From sequence record LR597651: 47,678 nt of DNA; one strand, written 5' to 3'. The notes under the pieces were generated by a model. The model made no database searches. It saw only the letters and a program-made list of their open reading frames with translations, and was not told the origin of the DNA. The stretch is from Escherichia phage Lambda_ev058. Below, in pieces: positions 4,394-46,290 of this stretch. Position 1 is the first letter of the stretch. Each line of letters starts with the position of its first letter. Made by a program: the position numbers and the translations under genes.

Positions 4394-5693
4394 TCTCCCG
4401 CATATTGCCAGTATGGCCTTTAATGAGCCGCTGATGCTTGAACCCGCCTATGCGCGGGTTTTCTTTTGTGCGCTTGCAGGCCAGCTTGGGATCAGCCGCC
4501 TGACGGATGCGGTATCCGGCGACAGCCTGACTGCCGGAGAGGCACCCGCGGCGCTGGCGTTATCCGTTGATGATGACGGACCACGACAGGCCCGCAGTTA
4601 TCAGGTCATGAACGGCATCGCCGTGCTGCCGGTGTCCGGCACGCTGGTCAGCCGGACGCGAGCGCTGCAGCCGTATTCGGGGATGACCGGTTACAACGGC
4701 ATTATCGCCCGTCTGCAACAGGCTGCCAGCGACCCGATGGTGGACGGCATTCTGCTCGATATGGATACGCCAGGCGGGATGGTGGCAGGGGCATTTGACT
4801 GCGCTGACATCATCGCCCGTGTGCGTGACATAAAGCCGGTATGGGCGCTGGCCAACGACATGAACTGCAGTGCAGGTCAGTTGCTTGCCAGTGCCGCCTC
4901 CCGGCGTCTGGTCACGCAGACCGCCCGGACAGGCTCCATCGGCGTCATGATGGCTCACAGTAATTACGGTGCTGCGCTGGAGAAACAGGGTGTGGAAATC
5001 ACGCTGATTTACAGCGGCAGCCATAAGGTGGATGGCAACCCCTACAGCCATCTTCCGGATGACGTCCGGGAGACACTGCAGTCCCGGATGGACGCAACCC
5101 GCCGGATGTTTGCACAGAAGGTGTCGGCATATACCGGCCTGTCCGTGCAGGCTGTGCTGGATACCGAGGCTGCAGTGTACAGCGGTCAGGAGGCCATTGA
5201 TGCCGGACTGGCTGATGAACTTGTTAACAGTACCGATGCGATCACCGTCATGCGTGATGCACTGGATGCACGTAAATCCCGTCTCTCAGGAGGGCGAATG
5301 ACCAAAGAGACTCAATCAACAACTGTTTCAGCCACTGCTTCGCAGGCTGACGTTACTGAGGTGGTGCAAGCGACGGAGGGCGAGAACGCCAGCGCGGCGC
5401 AGCCGGACGTGAACGCGCAGATCACCGCAGCGGTTGCGGCAGAAAACAGTCGCATTATGGGGATCCTCAACTGTGAGGAGGCTCACGGACGCGAAGAACA
5501 GGCACGCGTGCTGGCCGAAACCCCCGGTATGACCGTGGAAACGGCCCGCCGCATTCTGGCAGCTGCACCACAGAGTGCACAGGCGCGCAGTGACACTGCG
5601 CTGGATCGTCTGATGCAGGGGGCACCGGCACCGCTGGCTGCAGGTAACCCGGCATCTGATGCCGTTAACGATTTGCTGAACACACCAGTGTAA
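4374..5693 (+). CDS. C: head maturation protease / scaffold C
   Basis: The track ORF 4260-5693 contains the lambda gpC sequence from V-TAELRNLPHIASMAF. A GTG at 4374 preceded by GAGGAGGA gives a 439-aa product, equal to lambda C. ClpP/S49-like region present. Confidence 0.9.
5088..5693 (+). CDS. nu3: scaffolding protein Nu3 (in-frame internal start within C)
   Basis: In-frame ATG at 5088 (MDATRRMFAQKVSAYTG...) at the position equivalent to lambda Nu3 (5132 in lambda); shares the C stop codon. Confidence 0.8.
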   Translation: MDATRRMFAQKVSAYTGLSVQAVLDTEAAVYSGQEAIDAGLADELVNSTDAITVMRDALDARKSRLSGGRMTKETQSTTVSATASQADVTEVVQATEGENASAAQPDVNAQITAAVAAENSRIMGILNCEEAHGREEQARVLAETPGMTVETARRILAAAPQSAQARSDTALDRLMQGAPAPLAAGNPASDAVNDLLNTPV

Positions 5694-5702
5694 GGGATGT
5701 TT

Positions 5703-6035
5703 ATGACGAGCAAAGAAACCTTTACCCATTACCAGCCGCTGGGCAACAGTGACCCGGCACATACGGCAACCGCGCCCGGCGGATTGAGTGCGAAAGCGCC
5801 TGCAATGACCCCGCTGATGCTGGACACCTCCACCCGTAAGCTGGTTGTGTGGGATGGCACCACCGACGGTGCTGCCGTTGGCATTCTGGCGGTTGCTGCT
5901 GACCAGACCAGCACCACGCTGACGTTCTACAAGTCCGGCACGTTCCGTTATGAGGATGTGCTCTGGCCGGAGGCTGCCAGCGACGAGACGAAAAAACGGA
6001 CCGCGTTTGCCGGAACGGCAATCAGCATCGTTTAA
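5703..6035 (+). CDS. D: head decoration protein D
   Basis: 110-aa product from [12 protein letters not shown]..., matching lambda gpD as recalled. Confidence 0.95.
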
Positions 6036-38690: not shown

Positions 38691-39401
38691 GTGCACAGAA
38701 AACCCCCAGCTAGGCTGGGGGTTCCGGAAAGCTTTCAGCTTTGAGCCAGTTATTAAAACCCCTTTTGATTTGTTAAAACACCTTGCGGTCTGGCAACTGC
38801 AAGTGTCAAACAAGAAATCAAAAGGGGGTCCCAATGGGGAACGAAAAGAGCTTAGCGCACACCCGATGGAACTGTAAATATCACATAGTTTTTGCGCCAA
38901 AATACCGAAGACAGGTGTTCTACAGAGAGAAGCGTAGAGCAATAGGCAGTATTTTGAGAAAGCTGTGTGAGTGGAAAAGCGTACGGATTCTGGAAGCTGA
39001 ATGCTGTGCAGATCATATCCATATGCTTGTGGAGATCCCGCCTAAAATGAGCGTATCCGGGTTTATGGGATATCTGAAAGGGAAAAGCAGTCTGATGCTT
39101 TACGAGCAGTTTGGTGATTTGAAATTCAAATACAGGAACAGGGAGTTCTGGTGCAGAGGGTACTACGTCGATACAGTGGGTAAGAACACGGCGAAGATAC
39201 AGGATTACATAAAGCACCAGCTTGAAGAGGATAAAATGGGAGAGCAGTTATCGATTCCCTATCCGGGCAGCCCGTTTACGGGCCGTAAGTAACGAAGTTG
39301 GATGCAAATGTCAGATCGTGTGCGCCTGTTAGGGCGCGGCTGGTAAGAGAGCCTTATAGGCGCATTTGAAAAACCTCCGGCTATGCCGGAGGATATTTAT
39401 T
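38691..39401 (+). mobile_element. IS200 insertion sequence (IS200/IS605 family)
   Basis: About 711 bp inserted in the ren-ninB spacer. Left-end stem-loop CCCCCAGC-TAG-GCTGGGGG (38702-38720), tnpA, and right-end hairpin CCTCCGG-CTATG-CCGGAGG (39374-39392). Boundaries inferred by comparison with the recalled lambda spacer; accurate to about 5 bp. Confidence 0.75.
38834..39292 (+). CDS. tnpA: IS200 transposase TnpA (Y1 HUH)
   Basis: 152-aa product from MGNEKSLAHTRWNCKYHIVFAPKYRRQ..., with the HxH motif (ADHIHML) and catalytic Tyr region; closely matches IS200 TnpA as recalled. Confidence 0.9.
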   Translation: MGNEKSLAHTRWNCKYHIVFAPKYRRQVFYREKRRAIGSILRKLCEWKSVRILEAECCADHIHMLVEIPPKMSVSGFMGYLKGKSSLMLYEQFGDLKFKYRNREFWCRGYYVDTVGKNTAKIQDYIKHQLEEDKMGEQLSIPYPGSPFTGRK

Positions 39402-39418
39402 TGGGGGAGAGGGAAGTC

Positions 39419-39859
39419 ATGAAAAAACTAACCTTTGAAATTCGATCTCCAGCACATCAGCAAAACGCTATTCACGCAGTACAGCAAATCCTTCCAGACC
39501 CAACCAAACCAATCGTAGTAACCATTCAGGAACGCAACCGCAGCTTAGACCAAAACAGGAAGCTATGGGCCTGCTTAGGTGACGTCTCTCGTCAGGTTGA
39601 ATGGCATGGTCGCTGGCTGGATGCAGAAAGCTGGAAGTGTGTGTTTACCGCAGCATTAAAGCAGCAGGATGTTGTTCCTAACCTTGCCGGGAATGGCTTT
39701 GTGGTAATAGGCCAGTCAACCAGCAGGATGCGTGTAGGCGAATTTGCGGAGCTATTAGAGCTTATACAGGCATTCGGTACAGAGCGTGGCGTTAAGTGGT
39801 CAGACGAAGCGAGACTGGCTCTGGAGTGGAAAGCGAGATGGGGAGATCGGGCTGCATGA
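39419..39859 (+). CDS. ninB: NinB recombination protein
   Basis: 146-aa product from MKKLTFEIRSPAHQQNAIHAVQQILPDPTKP..., matching lambda NinB as recalled. Confidence 0.9.
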   Translation: MKKLTFEIRSPAHQQNAIHAVQQILPDPTKPIVVTIQERNRSLDQNRKLWACLGDVSRQVEWHGRWLDAESWKCVFTAALKQQDVVPNLAGNGFVVIGQSTSRMRVGEFAELLELIQAFGTERGVKWSDEARLALEWKARWGDRAA

Positions 39860-40900: not shown

Positions 40901-41087
40901 CCCATCTCAATCCCTTCAATACCTGAAAGGAAGCATAGAGCGGGCTTCAATGTGCACAGAGTGGATTCTATCTAGGTTTAGCGCATACAGAAGATTGCCG
41001 GTAAAGGGCATGCCAAGCAAGTCGATGCTGCATATGCAAAAGAATGCGCGCGGGAAGGTATGGCGAGAACGCAGGTTATCTGGCTGA
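40893..41087 (+). CDS. ninF: NinF-like protein with divergent C-terminus
   Basis: 64-aa ORF; the first 10 residues [10 protein letters not shown] match the lambda NinF N-terminus as recalled, but the remainder lacks the Cys motifs. Confidence 0.4.
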
Positions 41088-41106
41088 AAGAGGGGGTAAT
41101 TAAGGC

Positions 41107-41469
41107 GTGAATACTTACCACATCACACTACCCTGGCCTCCGAGCAATAATCGCTATTATCGCCATAATCGCGGGCGCACGCACGTCAGCGCAGAGGGGC
41201 AGGCATACCGCGATAACGTCGCCCGAATCATTAAAAACGCAATGCTGGATATCGGCCTGGCGATGCCTGTGAAAATCCGCATTGAGTGCCACATGCCGGA
41301 TCGCCGTCGCCGTGACCTGGATAATCTGCAAAAAGCCGCTTTTGACGCACTCACCAAAGCAGGTTTCTGGCTGGATGATGCTCAGGTCGTTGATTACCGC
41401 GTTGTGAAGATGCCTGTTACCAAAGGTGGGAGGCTGGAATTGACCATCACCGAAATGGGGAATGAATGA
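41107..41469 (+). CDS. rusA: Holliday junction resolvase RusA
   Basis: 120-aa ORF matching E. coli DLP12 RusA as recalled ([34 protein letters not shown]...). Confidence 0.95.
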
Positions 41470-41606
41470 TGTTTGAGTTTTATATGGCAGAACGTCTTCG
41501 CCACCGCTGGGTGCGTCTGCGCTTATATCGTTTCCCCGGTTCTGTTTTGACCGATTACCGAATACTGAAGAATTACGCCAAAACACTGACAGGAGCAGGA
41601 GTATGA
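41466..41606 (+). CDS. ylcG: YlcG-like small protein
   Basis: 46-aa ORF below the track cut-off, translated by hand as [46 protein letters not shown]; overlaps the rusA stop; matches DLP12 YlcG as recalled. Confidence 0.7.
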
Positions 41607-41691
41607 AGTCAGAGATAACAATCAACTAATACTGTTTTGCTGATTTTTGCTTGTAATTGGCGTTCTGGTCTGATTTTTGTGGAGTAAGTTG

Positions 41692-42069
41692 ATGCGTGAT
41701 ATTCAGATGGTTCTTGAGCGTTGGGGAGCGTGGGCGGCTAATAATCATGAAGATGTGACCTGGTCGTCCATTGCCGCCGGTTTTAAGGGATTAATTCCTT
41801 CAAAAGTAAAATCTCGCCCGCAATGTTGTGACGATGACGCGATGATCATTTGCGGGTGCATGGCCCGTCTGAAAAATAACAACAGCGATTTGCATGATTT
41901 GTTAGTGGACTATTATGTCGGCGGCATGACTTTTATGGCGCTTGCGCGTAAGCATGGTAGATCTGATTGTTGGATTGGCAGGATGCTCCAAAAAGCTGAG
42001 GGCGTAGTGGAGGGCATGCTGATGGTGTTGGATCTCAGATTGGAGATGGATGCTGATTGTTTGAGATAA
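41692..42069 (+). CDS. Q: late gene antiterminator Q (phage 82 / DLP12 QuuD type)
   Basis: 125-aa product from [33 protein letters not shown]..., matching the Q82-type antiterminator as recalled. Confidence 0.9.
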
Positions 42070-42168
42070 TTAAAGGAAAAGTTGCTGTCTGGTTATCATT
42101 AGACTAATGTTTCAAATGTTAGAATCGCAACGTAGTTATGATCATATAACAGCTTGTTCCCTGATTTA

Positions 42169-42198
42169 GCCAGCCTCCCCAAAGGCTGGTTTTTTTTC
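42169..42198 (+). terminator. tR'-like intrinsic terminator downstream of pR' (Q target)
   Basis: Direct: GCCAGCCT-CCCCAAA-AGGCTGG stem followed by an 8-T run, about 100 bp downstream of Q. Confidence 0.6.
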
Positions 42199-42225
42199 TA
42201 ATAAGTATCAATCCGGTTAGGTATT

Positions 42226-42750
42226 TTATTGTTTGACCCATAATAGTTCATTGACATTGAATCCCAATTTTTGAGCAGTACGCACATAGTCTGCTTTTAC
42301 ATTATCTGGAATAGTTGGAGTCCGTGCCAGAATCCATAGGTATTCTCTGTTCGGACCACTGACAAGAGCATACTTATACTCATCATCCAGTTTGATTACA
42401 TTATAGCCACCATAGAAGGGGCCAAAAAACGAAACCTTCAACGCTGCAGTTGTATTATCTCCTGTAAAGTATGCTTTACCTTCGCTCTCGCTCCATTTGT
42501 TTTTCGTTGGGTCATATCCACGATTAAGTACACTAATCCCTCCGTCGTTCCGTTTCCCATAAGTGGCGCTGACCTGTTCCAGACCACGTTCAAATCGGTT
42601 CTCAAGCCGAGCTATTTCATACCATTTTCCGAGGTAGCGGTTGGTGTCAAAATTTGTAATCGGCTGCACACCTTTAGGTGGTGTCGGGGCCTTACATGCT
42701 ATCAGAGTGAAAGAGAGTGCAATGCCAGTCAACACAGGCCATAACTTCAT
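42226..42750 (-). CDS. blc: outer-membrane lipocalin lipoprotein (Blc-like)
   Basis: 174-aa ORF with lipobox LIAC after a signal peptide; lipocalin motifs (RYLGKWYEIAR, KVSFFGPFYGGYNVI, EYLWILARTPT) matching E. coli Blc as recalled. Confidence 0.85.
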   Translation of the reverse strand: MKLWPVLTGIALSFTLIACKAPTPPKGVQPITNFDTNRYLGKWYEIARLENRFERGLEQVSATYGKRNDGGISVLNRGYDPTKNKWSESEGKAYFTGDNTTAALKVSFFGPFYGGYNVIKLDDEYKYALVSGPNREYLWILARTPTIPDNVKADYVRTAQKLGFNVNELLWVKQ

Positions 42751-42942
42751 AATATATCCTGTACTTTTGATAGTTGAGAGTAAGTATTAAAGATAGATGA
42801 TTACTACCGATCACCTAAAGAACTTTCCTACTATATTAGGAATAGTCCATAACAAAAAAATTGTCAGTGATGACGGCAGAAAGGCAGTTTAGGTCGTGTA
42901 CTACACTGTTAACCTGTTAATGAATTAGTCAAGGGGTAGGCA

Positions 42943-43902
42943 ATGATAAAAAAACCTGTCGTTGGGATCAGTGGTTGTTTGGCCGGTTCTTCTGTCCGTT
43001 TTGATGGTGGTCACAAAAGAGCTAGCTTTTTAATGGACAAATTACTGGAATGGGTAACATTCAAACCAGTATGTCCGGAAATGGCTATAGGGCTTCCAGT
43101 TCCGCGTCCTGCTCTACGTCTTGTTCGCTCGGCGCAAGGAAATATACGGATGTGTTTCAGCCACGACCAGAATGAGGATGTTACAGAGAAAATGACAGAG
43201 TTTAGTCGTTCTTATCTTGACAAATTAAAGGATGTATCGGGATTTGTGGTTTGTGCAAAATCTCCTAGCTGTGGTATGGAACGCGTGCGTGTATATGATG
43301 AAAATGGTAATCGTGGTCGTAAAGATGGAGTGGGACTATTTACGAGCACGTTGATGGAAAGGTTTTCCTGGCTACCGGTTGAAGAGGATGGGCGACTACA
43401 TGATCCAGTGCTTCGTGAAAACTTTGTTGAAAGAGTATTTGCTTTACATGAGCTCAATCATCTTTATAAAGCGAAATTATCAAGAAGGGAATTATTAGCT
43501 TTTCATAGCCGTTATAAGCTTCAGTTGTTGGCGCATAGCCAGGCCGGTTATAAAGAGATGGGGCCATTTGTGGCTGCAATACATGAGTGGGCAGACCTTG
43601 AATCATACTTTGAGGTGTATCGTGAGAAGCTGATGGCGATTCTCAGAAAACCTGCATCACGTAAAAATCACACGAATGTGCTGATGCATATACAGGGATA
43701 TTTTAGTAACTGCTTAAATACACGTCAGCGTAAAGAGTTGAGCGATGTTATACTTAACTATCGAGCTGGCACGCTACCTCTTCTTGCGCCATTAACTTTG
43801 CTGAAGCATTACTTGGCAGAGTATCCTGATGATTATTTGCTTATACAGAATTACTTCCACCCCTATCCTGATGAACTGGCTCTAAGACTCTTGGTGAACT
43901 AG
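42943..43902 (+). CDS. DUF523-DUF1722 protein (YbgA/TudS-like; putative Fe-S thiouracil or 4-thiouridine desulfidase)
   Basis: 319-aa ORF with conserved Cys at roughly 12, 44 and 105-110 (GISGCLAG, KPVCPE, VCAKSPSCG) in the N-terminal half and a YbgA-like C-terminal half. Family assignment is from memory. Confidence 0.55.
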   Translation: MIKKPVVGISGCLAGSSVRFDGGHKRASFLMDKLLEWVTFKPVCPEMAIGLPVPRPALRLVRSAQGNIRMCFSHDQNEDVTEKMTEFSRSYLDKLKDVSGFVVCAKSPSCGMERVRVYDENGNRGRKDGVGLFTSTLMERFSWLPVEEDGRLHDPVLRENFVERVFALHELNHLYKAKLSRRELLAFHSRYKLQLLAHSQAGYKEMGPFVAAIHEWADLESYFEVYREKLMAILRKPASRKNHTNVLMHIQGYFSNCLNTRQRKELSDVILNYRAGTLPLLAPLTLLKHYLAEYPDDYLLIQNYFHPYPDELALRLLVN

Positions 43903-44211
43903 GCGTTTGGAATGCACCAACAAGATGATTTTCTCCTTAGAGAATGTTTACAATCGTAAAAACTTCACTATGATATCTATAGTTGTACAGTTTGTAAAAA
44001 AATTCGGTTCATGCTTAAGGTAATGTTAATATGTTAATTAATGATTAATAATCAAGCAAGCCAAAAATAGTTCTGTTTAATCTAGTATTACATAAATATT
44101 TTAAAGAAAATATCAAAGTTCATGATGATATAATGAGATTTTTCTCATTGAAAATATGGCAATTTTAATATTTCCACCTATACTTACTTAACTCAAATCT
44201 AATTATGTCAG

Positions 44212-44952
44212 GTGGATGGTATGCCATGCATATGTTCTATCATTTTGGTTTTGAACTCGTTTGATATCCGGCTTGGTAAAGAAAAAATCTCTCTAAAAAA
44301 AGGAAGTGTTGTTGCTATAGAATACAATTTAAAAGTTTTCTTTTCTTCAAATAAAGATAATATAATGATCGTGGATATTGAAGAGAAAACAGTTAATGAC
44401 TTCTTTAAAAACAATACACTCTCACCTTTTTCTGTAAGAAGATTTTATTCAGCATACTTGATAGTAAACTGTACAGACTATTCATTGTTAAAGAACTTGA
44501 TAGGTTGCTTGAATTGTGATGGTGAAACTACGGCTGTAGTTAAAAATTCAATATTATTTGCATGTCTTGCTATTTTATCCTCGGAAAAAATGTTTCAGAG
44601 TTTTTTGTTTGGGTGTCTTAATAGTTTAGGAAGCAAAGTTAAGGCTATTATTCACTCGGACATATCTGCAGCATGGAGACTTTGTGATATTTCTTCAAGA
44701 CTATGTCTGAGTGAAAGTTTGTTAAAAAGAAAACTAAAACACGAAGGCTTATCATTTAGCAAATTAATTCTTGAAGAACGAATGGTGATGGCTGAAAGGT
44801 TATTAAGCTACAATTTCTATCCTGTTGGGAAAGTTGCTAAAATATGTGGTTATGAAAGCGCGTCATATTTTATAAGTGTTTTCAGAAGATATTTTGGTGT
44901 TCCCCCCCATGAATATTCATCAAGATTTTTTTTAGAAAAAGGCAAGATGTAA
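44212..44952 (+). CDS. AraC/XylS-family transcriptional regulator (AT-rich; Rns/PerA/PatE-like)
   Basis: 246-aa ORF with a C-terminal double-HTH AraC signature (KVAKICGYESASYFISVFRRYFGVPPHEY); strongly AT-rich gene and upstream region. Start codon uncertain. Confidence 0.75.
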   Translation: MDGMPCICSIILVLNSFDIRLGKEKISLKKGSVVAIEYNLKVFFSSNKDNIMIVDIEEKTVNDFFKNNTLSPFSVRRFYSAYLIVNCTDYSLLKNLIGCLNCDGETTAVVKNSILFACLAILSSEKMFQSFLFGCLNSLGSKVKAIIHSDISAAWRLCDISSRLCLSESLLKRKLKHEGLSFSKLILEERMVMAERLLSYNFYPVGKVAKICGYESASYFISVFRRYFGVPPHEYSSRFFLEKGKM

Positions 44953-45013
44953 CGTGATGCGTTTTGATGATTTTGTAATTTTCATATTTGATGATTATAT
45001 GATGCTTTCAGCT

Positions 45014-45044
45014 ACGCCAGAATAATCGCTGGCGTTTTTCTTTT
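45014..45044 (+). terminator. intrinsic terminator after the AraC-family gene
   Basis: Direct: CGCCAG-AATAAT-CGCTGGCG stem followed by TTTTTCTTTT. Confidence 0.55.
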
Positions 45045-45119
45045 CTAATGTAACTTCTGTATCTTTCCCTCTTTCATTCCAAACCGTGTACACCATCCGT
45101 TATTCGCGGAGGTGAGGCT

Positions 45120-45335
45120 ATGAAATCCATGGACAAGTTAACAACGGGCATTGCCTACGGCACCTCTGCAGGCAGTGCTGGCTACTGGTTTTTACAGTGG
45201 CTTGATCAGGTCAGTCCGTCACAGTGGGCGGCGATTGGAGTGCTTGGAAGCCTTGTGTTGGGTTTTCTCACTTATCTGACAAACCTTTATTTCAAGATTA
45301 AAGAAGATAAGCGTAAGGCTGCGAGAGGTGAATAA
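45120..45335 (+). CDS. S: holin, phage-21-type pinholin (class II, dual start)
   Basis: 71-aa [53 protein letters not shown]... with the M1-K2-S3-M4 dual-start motif and two TMDs; matches S21 as recalled. Confidence 0.9.
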
Positions 45336-45832
45336 TGTCGCCATCATTACGCAAGGCTGTAGCAGCTGCTATTGGTGGTGGGGCTGTTGCCATAGCGTCT
45401 GTGCTCATCACTGGTCCGAGTGGTGACGATGGTCTGGAAGGTGTCAGCTACATACCATATAAAGATATTGTTGGTGTATGGACTGTATGTCACGGGCATA
45501 CAGGAAAAGACATCATGCTCGGTAAAACGTATACCAAAGCAGAATGCAAAGCACTCTTGAATAAAGACCTTGCCACTGTCGCCAGACAAATTAACCCGTA
45601 CATCAAAGTCGATATACCGGAAACAACGCGCGGCGCTCTTTACTCATTCGTTTACAACGTGGGTGCTGGCAATTTCAGAACATCGACGCTTCTTCGCAAA
45701 ATAAACCAGGGCGATATCAAAGGCGCATGTGATCAGTTACGTCGCTGGACATATGCTGGCGGTAAGCAATGGAAAGGTCTCATGACTCGTCGTGAGATTG
45801 AGCGTGAAATCTGTTTGTGGGGTCAGCAATGA
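45335..45832 (+). CDS. R: SAR endolysin (phage-21-type lysozyme)
   Basis: 165-aa ORF with an N-terminal signal-anchor-release segment ([20 protein letters not shown]) and T4-lysozyme-like E..D..T catalytic spacing; matches R21 as recalled. Confidence 0.9.
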
Positions 45833-46290
45833 ACAGAGTAACCGCGATTATCTCCGCTCTGGTTATCTGCATCATCGTCTGCCTGTCATGGGCTGTTAAT
45901 CATTACCGTGATAACGCCATTACCTACAAAGCCCAGCGCGACAAAAATGCCAGAGAACTGAAGCTGGCGAACGCGGCAATTACTGACATGCAGATGCGTC
46001 AGCGTGATGTTGCTGCGCTCGATGCAAAATACACGAAGGAGTTAGCTGATGCGAAAGCTGAAAATGATGCTCTGCGTGATGATGTTGCCGCTGGTCGTCG
46101 TCGGTTGCACATCAAAGCAGTCTGTCAGTCAGTGCGTGAAGCCACCACCGCCTCCGGCGTGGATAATGCAGCCTCCCCCCGACTGGCAGACACCGCTGAA
46201 CGGGATTATTTCACCCTCAGAGAGAGGCTGATCACGATGCAAAAACAACTGGAAGGAACCCAGAAGTATATTAATGAGCAGTGCAGATAG
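45829..46290 (+). CDS. Rz: spanin inner-membrane subunit Rz
   Basis: 153-aa product from [29 protein letters not shown]..., matching lambda Rz as recalled; start overlaps the R stop. Confidence 0.9.
46049..46231 (+). CDS. Rz1: spanin outer-membrane lipoprotein Rz1 (embedded in Rz, +1 frame)
   Basis: 60-aa ORF entirely within Rz, with lipobox VVGC and a proline-rich segment ([15 protein letters not shown]). Confidence 0.85.

Follow-up and report, generated by a model that had tools for sequence, protein, structure and literature searches.

A blc lipocalin gene in the Q-to-holin slot of a lambdoid phage, probably a lysogenic-conversion gene

What is a gene for an outer-membrane lipocalin doing in a lambdoid phage, next to the late-gene antiterminator Q and antisense to the late transcript, and where did it come from? 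We addressed this question in Escherichia phage Lambda_ev058 (LR597651), the whole analysed stretch of which (47,678 nt) is called the window below. The original prediction, made from the letters of the DNA, described a Blc-like lipoprotein of 174 aa with the lipobox LIAC on the minus strand at 42226-42750, and the open reading frame, Pfam, NCBIfam and phmmer all agree with it.

42226-42750, minus strand: blc, ATG start, precursor of a predicted 174-aa outer-membrane lipocalin lipoprotein
42694-42750, minus strand: type II signal peptide with lipobox LIAC, from the translation; Cys19 is the predicted first mature residue

The protein matches Pfam Lipocalin_2 with 148 bits (E=2.2e-43; cut-off 24) and, over residues 1-174, the NCBIfam model PRK10477 'outer membrane lipoprotein Blc' (NF007786) with 315.5 bits (cut-off 267 bits), and a phmmer search of the PDB returned the Blc chains 3mbt, 1qwd and 2aco (E=2.6e-69 to 6e-68). 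The alignment with chromosomal Blc that had been proposed together with the prediction runs gap-free over 174 aa, with 60% identity to K-12 Blc (b4149; PDB 1QWD, 2ACO, 3MBT), which belongs to the same length class and NCBIfam subfamily and has its lipobox cysteine likewise at position 19. The AlphaFold2 model of the phage protein, built on a shallow alignment of 23 sequences, reached a mean pLDDT of only 65.3; this low-confidence model has seven beta-strands, where the lipocalin barrel has eight antiparallel ones, plus one helix near each terminus (the N-terminal one at 43-50), and in a Foldseek search of the PDB its top 10 matches were all Blc or Blc-derived, at a TM of only ~0.4. Failure to predict a lipocalin fold had been named as grounds for refuting the prediction, but the model is too poor to count for or against it; the claim of such a fold rests on the 60% identity to crystal structures (E ~1e-69), and by this homology it is secure. 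Of the 19 residues that line the heme/vaccenate pocket, taken as those at most 4 A from heme in wtBlc-split (PMC8177097), the phage protein shares 18 with E. coli Blc, the sole change being K77R; R52 at the pocket mouth is kept. Residue 84 is Asn in the phage protein, the position of the G84E polymorphism of Blc, for which weaker LPE binding has been reported (PMC7026729). The affinity of E. coli Blc for heme is micromolar, and whether lysophospholipid or heme is behind the physiological role of the chromosomal protein is unsettled (PMC8177097).

At the N-terminus, the translation of 42226-42750 reads MKLWPVLTGIALSFTLIAC, directly followed by KAPTPP. For the lipobox we used the pattern [LVI][ASTVI][GAS]C with a residue other than Asp at +2 (outer-membrane sorting); L16-I-A-C19 followed by Lys20 conforms to it, so that lipidation is predicted. 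A18, C19 and the downstream PTPP motif do not vary across 9 Blc sequences from the two lineages described below. Judged from its sequence, the product is unambiguously a Blc-family lipocalin, in which the predicted type II signal peptide is intact and the ligand pocket conserved. A peptide specific to the phage protein is VSFFGPFYGGYNVIK, where K-12 Blc has ...NVIALDR.

The surroundings of the gene are as follows.

41677-42069, plus strand: Q, late-gene antiterminator (Pfam PF06530 Phage_antitermQ, E=2.5e-51), left neighbour of the slot
42052-45108: cargo block of 3.06 kb, with the PR'/terminator region, blc, a ybgA-like gene, an araC-like gene and a second terminator
42943-43902, plus strand: YbgA-family gene, divergent from blc, full-length with DUF523 and DUF1722 (PF04463, E=3.6e-40; PF08349, E=1.3e-40)
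44212-44952, plus strand: AraC/XylS-family regulator of the YdeO/GadX/PsrA type (Pfam HTH_18, HTH_AraC; GC 31.6%)
45120-45335: holin, and 45335-45832: lysozyme, on the right side of the slot

The predicted position between Q and the lysis genes thus stands, but blc is not alone there: in the Q-to-holin slot two more cargo genes follow it. Across 80 viral loci, Q and blc are adjacent with a single exception (L137), where an insert of ~1.3 kb separates them; they are adjacent in each of the prophage copies that we looked at (L001-L004) as well. In a blastn comparison with the K-12 prophage DLP12, identity is 93% up to 42051 and again from 45109, with no match between. Since the homology breaks exactly at the slot, we regard the slot as exchangeable; DLP12 holds the porin gene nmpC there, likewise on the minus strand. 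The phage block shows two marks of a moron, namely different cargo between flanks that are 93% identical to DLP12, and a deviating base composition: the window has 49.9% GC, but blc only 43.6%, ybgA 42.7% and the araC-like gene 31.6%. That blc is AT-rich relative to its chromosomal counterpart had also been predicted correctly: its GC content (GC3 39.4%) compares with 53.4% for K-12 blc.

As to the other two cargo genes, the DUF523 domain of YbgA is the 2-thiouracil-desulfurase domain. The best NCBIfam match of the AraC-like protein is YdeO, below the cut-off, and it shares 47% identity over 157 aa with PsrA of strain Sakai (ECs_1087). As this covers the C-terminal two-thirds, the protein is a relative of PsrA and not an orthologue, and we rejected an identification with PsrA, PsrB or PatE themselves. 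Sakai psrA is likewise situated between Q and lysis genes. The araC-like gene is annotated as frameshifted in YD786, absent from the IS3-truncated cassette of E. coli B, and missing or only partly matched in some viral loci. The phage also encodes a separate sie gene.

The original prediction took blc for a diverged copy of E. coli's own gene, which the comparison does not bear out. K-12 Blc is only 60% identical, whereas the nearest non-phage relatives, from another enterobacterial lineage, reach 79-82% (Raoultella 74%), and these adjoin a MlrA-like regulator gene and a ybgA gene whose product is 71-74% identical to the phage YbgA, which points to joint capture of blc and ybgA. The context differs as well, since K-12 blc lies in gdx-blc-ampC and phage blc between Q and the ybgA-like gene. 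In the second lineage (Leclercia, Enterobacter nematophilus, Huaxiibacter, Buttiauxella, Raoultella) blc is divergent from a mlrA-like-ybgA operon, and it shares with the phage both the divergent ybgA and a homologous 5' region. In the chromosomal loci, blc and ybgA are separated by a MlrA-like MerR regulator gene and in some of them also by a transthyretin-like gene, in contrast to the phage, which is without the regulator; a tblastn search of the window for its remnants gave nothing at E<0.1. They also have a GC content of 51-58% (phage blc 43.6%) and contain no phage genes. By these alignments, phage blc derives from the second enterobacterial lineage and not from the ampC/gdx-linked blc of E. 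coli. We infer that the blc-ybgA pair entered the phage from a chromosomal locus of the Leclercia/Buttiauxella type, probably with loss of the intervening mlrA-like regulator gene.

How the gene could be expressed depends on the signals on both sides of it.

42168-42200, plus strand: tR'-like intrinsic terminator, hairpin at 42168-42191 and T-run to ~42200
42783-42795, minus strand: candidate -10 region of the blc promoter, CTATCTTTAATACTT, alignment-based
42826-42842: conserved spacer block TTCCTACTATATTAGGAA, homologous to CTCAATATACTACGAA of chromosomal loci
45014-45045, plus strand: second intrinsic terminator, 7 pairs and T-rich tail (-11.3 kcal/mol, z=-2.9)

The location of blc just past a tR'-like terminator and antisense to the late transcript was confirmed. 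The terminator follows the Q stop codon by 99 nt and is 25 nt away from the stop codon of blc; in our scan its stem of 9 pairs encloses a 6-nt loop, and a T8 run follows (-14.2 kcal/mol on the plus strand, z=-3.3). On the minus strand the same hairpin folds (-13.3 kcal/mol), but CUAAAUCAGG comes next and there is no U-tract. Stem and loop do not vary in 6 cassette variants, in which the T-run is T7 or T8. A canonical terminator near blc on its own strand was looked for and none was found, the sole nearby hairpin being that of the plus-strand terminator. The second plus-strand terminator lies past the araC-like gene and 75 nt ahead of the holin start. A promoter-like site at 42041-42070 overlaps the Q stop codon and is a candidate for PR'. 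An Rfam search of 41000-46000 at E<=1 gave a sub-threshold match on the terminator hairpin as its only result.

Being antisense to the late transcript, blc needs a promoter of its own, for which the original prediction had proposed the divergent spacer between blc and the ybgA-like gene (42751-42942, 192 bp). A generic sigma-70 scan found zero minus-strand sites in this spacer. As it returned 12 sites overall against 11.0 expected from shuffles, the scan is uninformative, and we used comparative alignment instead. Indeed, the blc-proximal ~110 bp of the spacer are homologous to the upstream region of the chromosomal relatives, and the homology spans the RBS, a -10-like element and a distal block, whereas the upstream region of K-12 blc gives no alignment with the phage spacer. 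The -10-like element, CTATCTTTAATACTT, contains the overlapping hexamers TATCTT (42795->42790) and AATACT (42788->42783), and it aligns with a conserved TGCACTACACTT located ~35 nt upstream of the start codon of the chromosomal blc homologues. This sigma-S-like element (C-TATCTT-TAA / AATACT) is nearly unvarying among cassette variants. The assignment is drawn from alignment to chromosomal sequences that are themselves unmapped, and the predicted promoter, which it favours, is accordingly a candidate. For RpoS-dependent, stationary-phase or osmotic induction of the kind seen with E. coli blc, the indication is this sigma-S-like -10, positioned as TGCACTACACTT of the relatives, which makes such induction a candidate too. 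The distal block TTCCTACTATATTAGGAA is conserved in all phage variants bar one substitution, and its counterpart CTCAATATACTACGAA belongs to the blc/mlrA-like intergenic region of Leclercia, Enterobacter nematophilus, Huaxiibacter, Buttiauxella and Raoultella; by this homology we consider it a relic of the ancestral divergent promoter/operator region.

The gene is far from rare. Ten deposited phages of the Lambda_2E9/1H12 group contain the same cargo block, with blc annotated as "Lipocalin Blc", and the cassette was matched in 1152 of 5426 complete E. coli genomes; with blc plus spacer as query, 1140 genomes matched, and in 1038 of these the match covered 80% or more of the query. Mathieu et al. 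(2020) count blc among the morons and report it for more than half of their lambdoid phages (PMC6969025). Phage blc is thus already known, as an annotated gene and a published moron present in about one fifth of the complete E. coli genomes, so that it has to be called ordinary, and the novelty implied by the original prediction falls away. The literature that we found on its function consists of annotation-level mentions, with no phenotype among them. New here are the origin from the second lineage, the surviving ~110 bp of ancestral upstream region, the purifying selection, and the recognition of a 97% variant in published proteomic data.

With regard to selection, 80 viral contigs carry blc, and the 174-codon reading frame is intact in 79 of them. 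Compared with cassette variants of 93% identity, dN/dS of blc is 0.065-0.10 at a dS of 0.17-0.20 (~20 synonymous differences), i.e. the gene is, by this measure, under strong purifying selection; the values are 0.11-0.13 for the ybgA-like gene and 0.26-0.28 for the araC-like gene. E. coli B has kept an intact blc in its decayed Qin-like prophage, where IS3 cuts ybgA, and one strain has an IS1 insertion in blc. The protein of the YD786 cassette, WP_000780581.1, is 97% identical to the Blc of the window. A TMT proteomics study of E. coli CCUG 70745 measured it and found increases of 1.99-fold and 2.98-fold with meropenem, together with Spy, MliC, YcfJ and YgdI (PMC13459554). Since levels of an SSB and of an AntA/AntB antirepressor-family protein went up alongside it (PMC13459554), the increase could reflect a higher prophage copy number, and the signal could include peptides shared with chromosomal Blc. 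With these two caveats, the published data show that the 97% variant is made in a presumed lysogen. A role in the lysogen, as originally predicted, fits the low dN/dS, the intact copies and this detection.

Taken together, we think it probable that blc is a lysogenic-conversion gene (moron) of a lambdoid temperate phage, and that the following account of its route, function, regulation and origin is the best explanation as a whole. In the prophage, blc would be transcribed from its own promoter in the 192-bp spacer, a likely relic of the ancestral chromosomal blc promoter with its sigma-S-like -10 at ~42783-42795. The precursor would be exported by Sec and lipidated at Cys19 (Lgt, LspA, Lnt); as the +2 residue is Lys, Lol would then sort the lipoprotein to the outer membrane, at its periplasmic face. 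There the calyx, like that of E. coli Blc, may bind lysophospholipids and fatty acids, perhaps tetrapyrroles as well, and under stationary-phase or envelope stress the lysogen would gain a second, differently regulated dose of an envelope-maintenance protein. The terminator at 42168-42200 would halt the constitutive PR' transcripts of the lysogen before they enter blc in antisense; upon induction, Q-modified polymerase would pass the terminator, and blc would be turned off by collision and antisense transcription.

Other readings of the locus appear less convincing to us. Blc and YbgA might be a functional pair, so that the phage would carry a deregulated two-gene stress module against light, UV or oxidative damage, in which Blc handles photosensitising tetrapyrroles or damaged lipids and the DUF523/TudS-like YbgA handles thiolated nucleobases; blc would then do more than serve the general upkeep of the envelope. 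In five chromosomal relatives the two genes are neighbours, along with a MlrA/BluR-type MerR regulator; there is a palindromic operator of MerR type at the chromosomal ybgA, and nearly all cassette copies retain both genes, each under purifying selection. Moreover, K-12 ybgA overlaps the photolyase gene phr in the same orientation, a photolyase gene is found directly upstream of blc in three Bacteroidota loci, and heme binding by E. coli Blc (PMC8177097) would suit such a task. However, the photolyase link occurs in only 3 of 80 genome loci and ybgA in only 5-6, blc of E. coli B survives alone after the IS3 truncation of ybgA, and the regulator that would define the signal is absent from the phage. 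Also, we know of no biochemical link between Blc and YbgA. We therefore hold the module to be unlikely, and rather more doubtful still the specific version in which the phage took two-thirds of a chromosomal stress module (MlrA/BluR-like regulator, YbgA and Blc, with components associated with photolyase elsewhere) and Blc and YbgA serve one pathway. If a module it were, the prophage would give E. coli a regulator-free, constitutively poised defence against damage by light, tetrapyrroles or peroxidised lipids.

That blc is a neutral hitch-hiker, brought in by illegitimate recombination and kept by linkage to the Q/PR' module and the lysis genes, would agree with a slot that accepts unrelated cargo such as nmpC in DLP12, with the frequent decay of the adjacent araC-like gene, with IS1 in blc of one strain and with a literature that reports no phenotype. 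A dN/dS of 0.065-0.10 across ~20 synonymous differences, 79 of 80 viral copies intact, a conserved lipobox and pocket (18/19), and a 97% variant that is detected as a stress-responsive protein nevertheless make neutrality quite improbable. Prophage-encoded outer-membrane lipoproteins that block other phages are represented by T5 Llp and the Cor family, and by analogy Blc, a predicted outer-membrane lipoprotein, might alter the outer membrane against adsorption or injection, as the original prediction suggested in part. This exclusion reading is unsupported; PADLOC matched none of the three cassette proteins to a defence model. Moreover, the protein is a typical Blc whose pocket for small molecules is conserved and whose closest relatives are chromosomal housekeeping or stress genes, its probable orientation towards the periplasm, as in E. 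coli Blc, is unsuited to receptor masking, and the phage already has its sie gene; we give exclusion very little credence.

As a lysogenic-conversion gene, blc joins a known pattern of outer-membrane cargo opposite the late genes (bor, nmpC/lc, lom), of which it is a further example that raises no new question. The genes lc of PA-2 and stx of Stx phages are cargo in the same Q-to-holin slot; stx, in contrast to the antisense phage blc, is co-oriented with the late transcript and dependent on it. nmpC of DLP12 shares slot and minus strand with phage blc and also encodes an outer-membrane protein, but a porin and not a lipocalin. The Bor/Iss moron of lambda, present in this same phage, is a small outer-membrane lipoprotein expressed from the prophage and encoded opposite to the late genes, yet its fold is unrelated to that of Blc, it is located after Rz, and it is known to confer serum resistance.

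Judging from purifying selection and from detection by proteomics, the phage copy appears to be functional. If so, about one fifth of E. coli strains would hold a second, prophage-borne Blc with a different regulatory region, and studies of "blc" may conflate two paralogues, be it in lysophospholipid homeostasis, in gut inflammation linked to G84E or in proteomic signatures of envelope stress; a 2026 proteomics paper names the prophage-type accession simply Blc. Lipocalins also occur in S. meliloti prophages of the phiLM21-like type, presumably as independent cases in temperate phages. Finally, an independent blc occupies a different moron slot in the Morganella phage IME1369_01, where it lies in the interval from the lysis genes to the terminase, co-oriented with them, and its product is 51% identical to the Blc of the window.

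The original prediction of a Blc-type lipoprotein gene on the minus strand at 42226-42750 was confirmed exactly in position, strand and length (174 aa). Its product matches Lipocalin_2 in Pfam (E=2.2e-43) and, over its full length, the NCBIfam family 'outer membrane lipoprotein Blc' (315.5 bits; curated cut-off 267), and solved E. coli Blc chains match it with E=2.6e-69 to 6e-68. The predicted fold stands by this homology to the solved chains; the AlphaFold model is of low confidence (pLDDT 65) and adds nothing to it. The lipobox reads L-I-A-C, with Cys19 as the predicted lipidation residue and Lys at +2. As Lol-dependent sorting of lipoproteins is governed by the +2 rule, this Lys predicts Lol-dependent sorting of phage Blc to the outer membrane. 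The gene is also AT-rich, as had been noted (43.6% G/C vs 49.9% for the window). Its surroundings are as follows:

41677-42069, + strand: Q (PF06530), before blc
42041-42070, + strand: promoter-like site TGGAGA-18-GATAAT with upstream TG, overlapping the Q stop codon
42168-42200, + strand: strong intrinsic terminator after Q, without a U-tract on the blc strand
42226-42750, - strand: blc, ATG start, 174 aa, N-terminus MKLWPVLTGIALSFTLIAC-KAPTPP...
192 bp: divergent spacer between the oppositely oriented blc and ybgA-like genes
42943-43902, divergent from blc: YbgA-family gene, 319 aa, DUF523/2-thiouracil-desulfurase domain plus DUF1722
44212-44952, after the ybgA-like gene: AraC/XylS regulator of the YdeO/GadX type, 31.6% G/C
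45014-45045, + strand: second intrinsic terminator, after the araC-like gene
45120-45335: P21-type holin gene, then the lysozyme gene

The K-12 lambdoid prophage DLP12 is 93% identical to the window as far as 42051, a position in the 3' end of Q; this identity (93%) resumes at 45109, at the ribosome-binding site of the holin gene. For 42052-45108 DLP12 holds no alignable sequence; its nmpC porin gene fills the same slot, on the minus strand like blc. The break in homology and the presence of nmpC mark 42052-45108 as exchangeable cargo in the classic slot between Q and the lysis genes, with three genes, blc being the first. The promoter-like site at 42041-42070 sits 98 nt ahead of the terminator, where a PR' with a short terminated leader would be expected, and is a candidate only.

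Phage blc was rightly recognised in the original prediction, but as a moron it was already known, both annotated and published (Mathieu et al. 2020, PMC6969025); we add where it came from (a second Blc lineage, with co-capture of ybgA), the cassette boundaries, the prevalence, an estimate of selection and the tie to an entry in a proteomic study. Isolated temperate coliphages of the genus Jouyvirus (the Lambda_2E9/2G7a/4B5/ev*/1H12 group) share 99.7% identity with the first 25 kb of the window, and ten deposited records contain the Q-to-holin interval (42070-45119; 3.05 kb, roughly the cargo block) at 99.9-100% identity and already carry the annotation 'Lipocalin Blc' for the gene. Phage Blc is also covered by the PHROGs family phrog_2809. 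The block occurs in 1152 of 5426 complete E. coli genomes (~21%), 683 of which hold at least 80% of it; blc with the spacer matches 1140 genomes, and the identity is at least 99% in 110 of them and 90-95% in 1026 (sampled rows lie near 93.6%). PGAP names the product 'lipocalin family protein' or 'outer membrane lipoprotein Blc'. The lambdoid backgrounds are varied (E. coli B has the gene in a decayed Qin-like prophage), and the same Q type adjoins blc in every examined prophage copy and in all but one of 80 retrieved IMG/VR contigs, the exception (L137) having an insertion of ~1.3 kb between Q and blc. In E. coli B (BL21-AI, prophage locus L003, 7793-9132) ybgA is cut by IS3 and the remaining cassette is lost, with blc intact; strain GN02270 (NZ_CP095510.1) has an IS1 inserted in its prophage blc.

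The original prediction took the gene for a diverged copy of the chromosomal one; alignment bears out the divergence but not an E. coli source. Phage Blc is only 60% identical to K-12 Blc, which is encoded in the context gdx-blc-ampC. Enterobacteriaceae contain two Blc lineages: the gdx/ampC-linked one (75-79% identity to K-12 Blc, 58-61% to phage Blc), and a second in Leclercia, Enterobacter nematophilus, Huaxiibacter, Buttiauxella, Kosakonia and Raoultella with 74-82% identity to phage Blc; both occur in Buttiauxella izardii. Five second-lineage genomes have a ybgA divergent from blc, with a product 71-74% identical to phage YbgA. Four of these carry a gene for an MlrA-like MerR regulator between the two, and three, including Huaxiibacter (without the MlrA-like match), a transthyretin-like gene. 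Their ybgA promoters contain, near the regulator gene and between putative -35 and -10, the conserved palindrome ACTTgGACAAA-N7-9-TTTGTgTAAGT (chromosomal locus L006 ~4600-4640 and equivalents in L007-L010), and such palindromes are typical of MerR/MlrA-type operators. The phage lacks this palindrome, and no remnant of an MlrA-like regulator is detectable in it; its blc-ybgA layout is what deletion of the regulator would leave. GC3 is 39% in phage blc vs 57-71% in the relatives, which indicates a long stay in AT-richer mobile DNA.

About 110 bp of the spacer next to blc align with the region upstream of chromosomal blc. Besides the ribosome-binding site, the two share a -10-like element, CTATCTTTAATACTT in the phage and TGCACTACACTT in the chromosomes, and a more distal block that reads AATATAGTAGGAA and AATATACTACGAA, respectively. 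The -10-like element resembles the sigma-S -10 consensus (C at -13, TATACT, TAA); as a candidate, it fits the known RpoS dependence of E. coli blc. A generic promoter scan and Rfam gave nothing informative for the blc region. At 42896-42907 (+), 5' of ybgA and on its strand, the window reads GTGTACTACACT (CGTGCACTACAC in the 93% cassette variants); the same 12-mer lies on the blc strand upstream of chromosomal blc, as the -10-like element (L006-L009, ~5960-5975), and could be a piece of promoter that was duplicated or inverted, or else a site for a regulator.

A comparison of the two main cassette variants gives ~20 synonymous vs 5-7 non-synonymous differences in blc (dN/dS 0.065-0.10; ybgA 0.11-0.13, araC-like gene 0.26-0.28), and the 174 codons of blc are intact in 79 of 80 viral contigs. 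The structure of Blc with heme defines 19 pocket-lining residues, the pocket being also the vaccenate site (PMC8177097); 18 are identical in phage Blc, the sole change being K77R. R52 is conserved and residue 84 is Asn, a position at which the G84E polymorphism was reported to lower LPE binding (PMC7026729). In a 2026 TMT proteomic study of carbapenem-resistant E. coli CCUG 70745, WP_000780581.1, listed as 'Blc', rose under meropenem 1.99-fold at 128 ug/mL and 2.98-fold at 192 ug/mL, alongside Spy, MliC, YcfJ, YgdI and YceB (PMC13459554, Table 1). This accession is the cassette protein of strain YD786 (97% identity to the window Blc). Since it was quantified and rose, the prophage Blc paralogue is produced and responsive to envelope stress, with the reservation that some peptides are possibly common to chromosomal Blc. 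Prophage induction may contribute to the rise, because an AntA/AntB antirepressor-family protein and SSB were also up (PMC13459554). By its accession the 'Blc' of that study is prophage-type, not chromosomal, and studies of blc in cassette-bearing strains may conflate the paralogues. A neutral passenger is an unlikely reading in view of selection, intactness and expression; phage blc is a real, intact moron lipocalin gene and almost certainly functional.

Starting from what is established (family, signal peptide with lipobox, conservation of the pocket, status as cargo, selection, and expression of the protein), we propose that in the lysogen blc would be transcribed from the relic promoter in the spacer, and its precursor exported, lipidated at Cys19 and anchored in the outer membrane at its inner leaflet. 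In that position Blc would bind lysophospholipids and fatty acids, possibly also tetrapyrroles, like E. coli Blc, as an additional envelope-maintenance factor under different regulation. The terminator at 42168-42200 would serve the Q/PR' side, as it lacks a U-tract on the blc strand, and in the lysogen would guard blc against being transcribed antisense. Once the prophage is induced, polymerase modified by Q would have to cross blc antisense on its way to the holin gene, which should silence blc; the same logic would hold for bor and sitABCD of this phage, likewise on the minus strand. The initially suggested exclusion of other phages finds no support: there is no PADLOC hit, phage Blc is an orthodox Blc predicted to bind small molecules, and a separate sie gene is present in the phage.

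Of the alternatives, the most interesting one would make Blc and YbgA a pair out of a light- or oxidative-stress module, as suggested by the MlrA/BluR-like regulator of the ancestral locus, the ybgA-phr operon of K-12, the binding of heme by Blc, and three Bacteroidota loci with a photolyase gene beside blc. This linkage is thin, and blc persists alone in E. coli B. In the three loci (L056, L058 and L060, ~4580-5945) the photolyase gene lies directly 5' of the Blc homologue in the same orientation, which hints at a light- or UV-stress association of some Blc genes. Phage YbgA has the full two-domain form (DUF523/TudS-like plus DUF1722), whereas K-12 YbgA (169 aa, 50% identity), encoded in the same orientation as the photolyase gene phr with a 4-nt overlap, has the DUF1722 half only; judged by domain content, the phage brings a domain absent from K-12 ybgA.

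The AraC-like protein shares 47% identity over 157 aa with PsrA (ECs_1087), whose gene, in prophage Sp4 of O157:H7 Sakai, is likewise flanked by Q and the lysis genes; the phage protein is a relative and not an orthologue of PsrA/PsrB/PatE. By analogy with these regulators of acid resistance and T3SS (PMC10877973), it may reprogramme the GAD (acid-resistance) regulon of the host. The araC-like gene is frameshifted in YD786, has a partial or no match in several viral loci and is gone from the cassette that IS3 truncated in E. coli B. A separate phage-borne Blc (51% identity) is encoded between lysis genes and terminase in Morganella phage IME1369_01 (L168, 5001-5516), which has a second envelope-lipid cargo gene, for a lipid A lauroyl acyltransferase (1-406). 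Most of the length gap between the window and the deposited phage genomes is due to a 705-bp insertion relative to phage Lambda_2E9 (38691-39395), just 5' of ninB (39383-39859), which codes for an IS200-like Y1 transposase (38783-39292; Pfam Y1_Tnp, E=5e-38).
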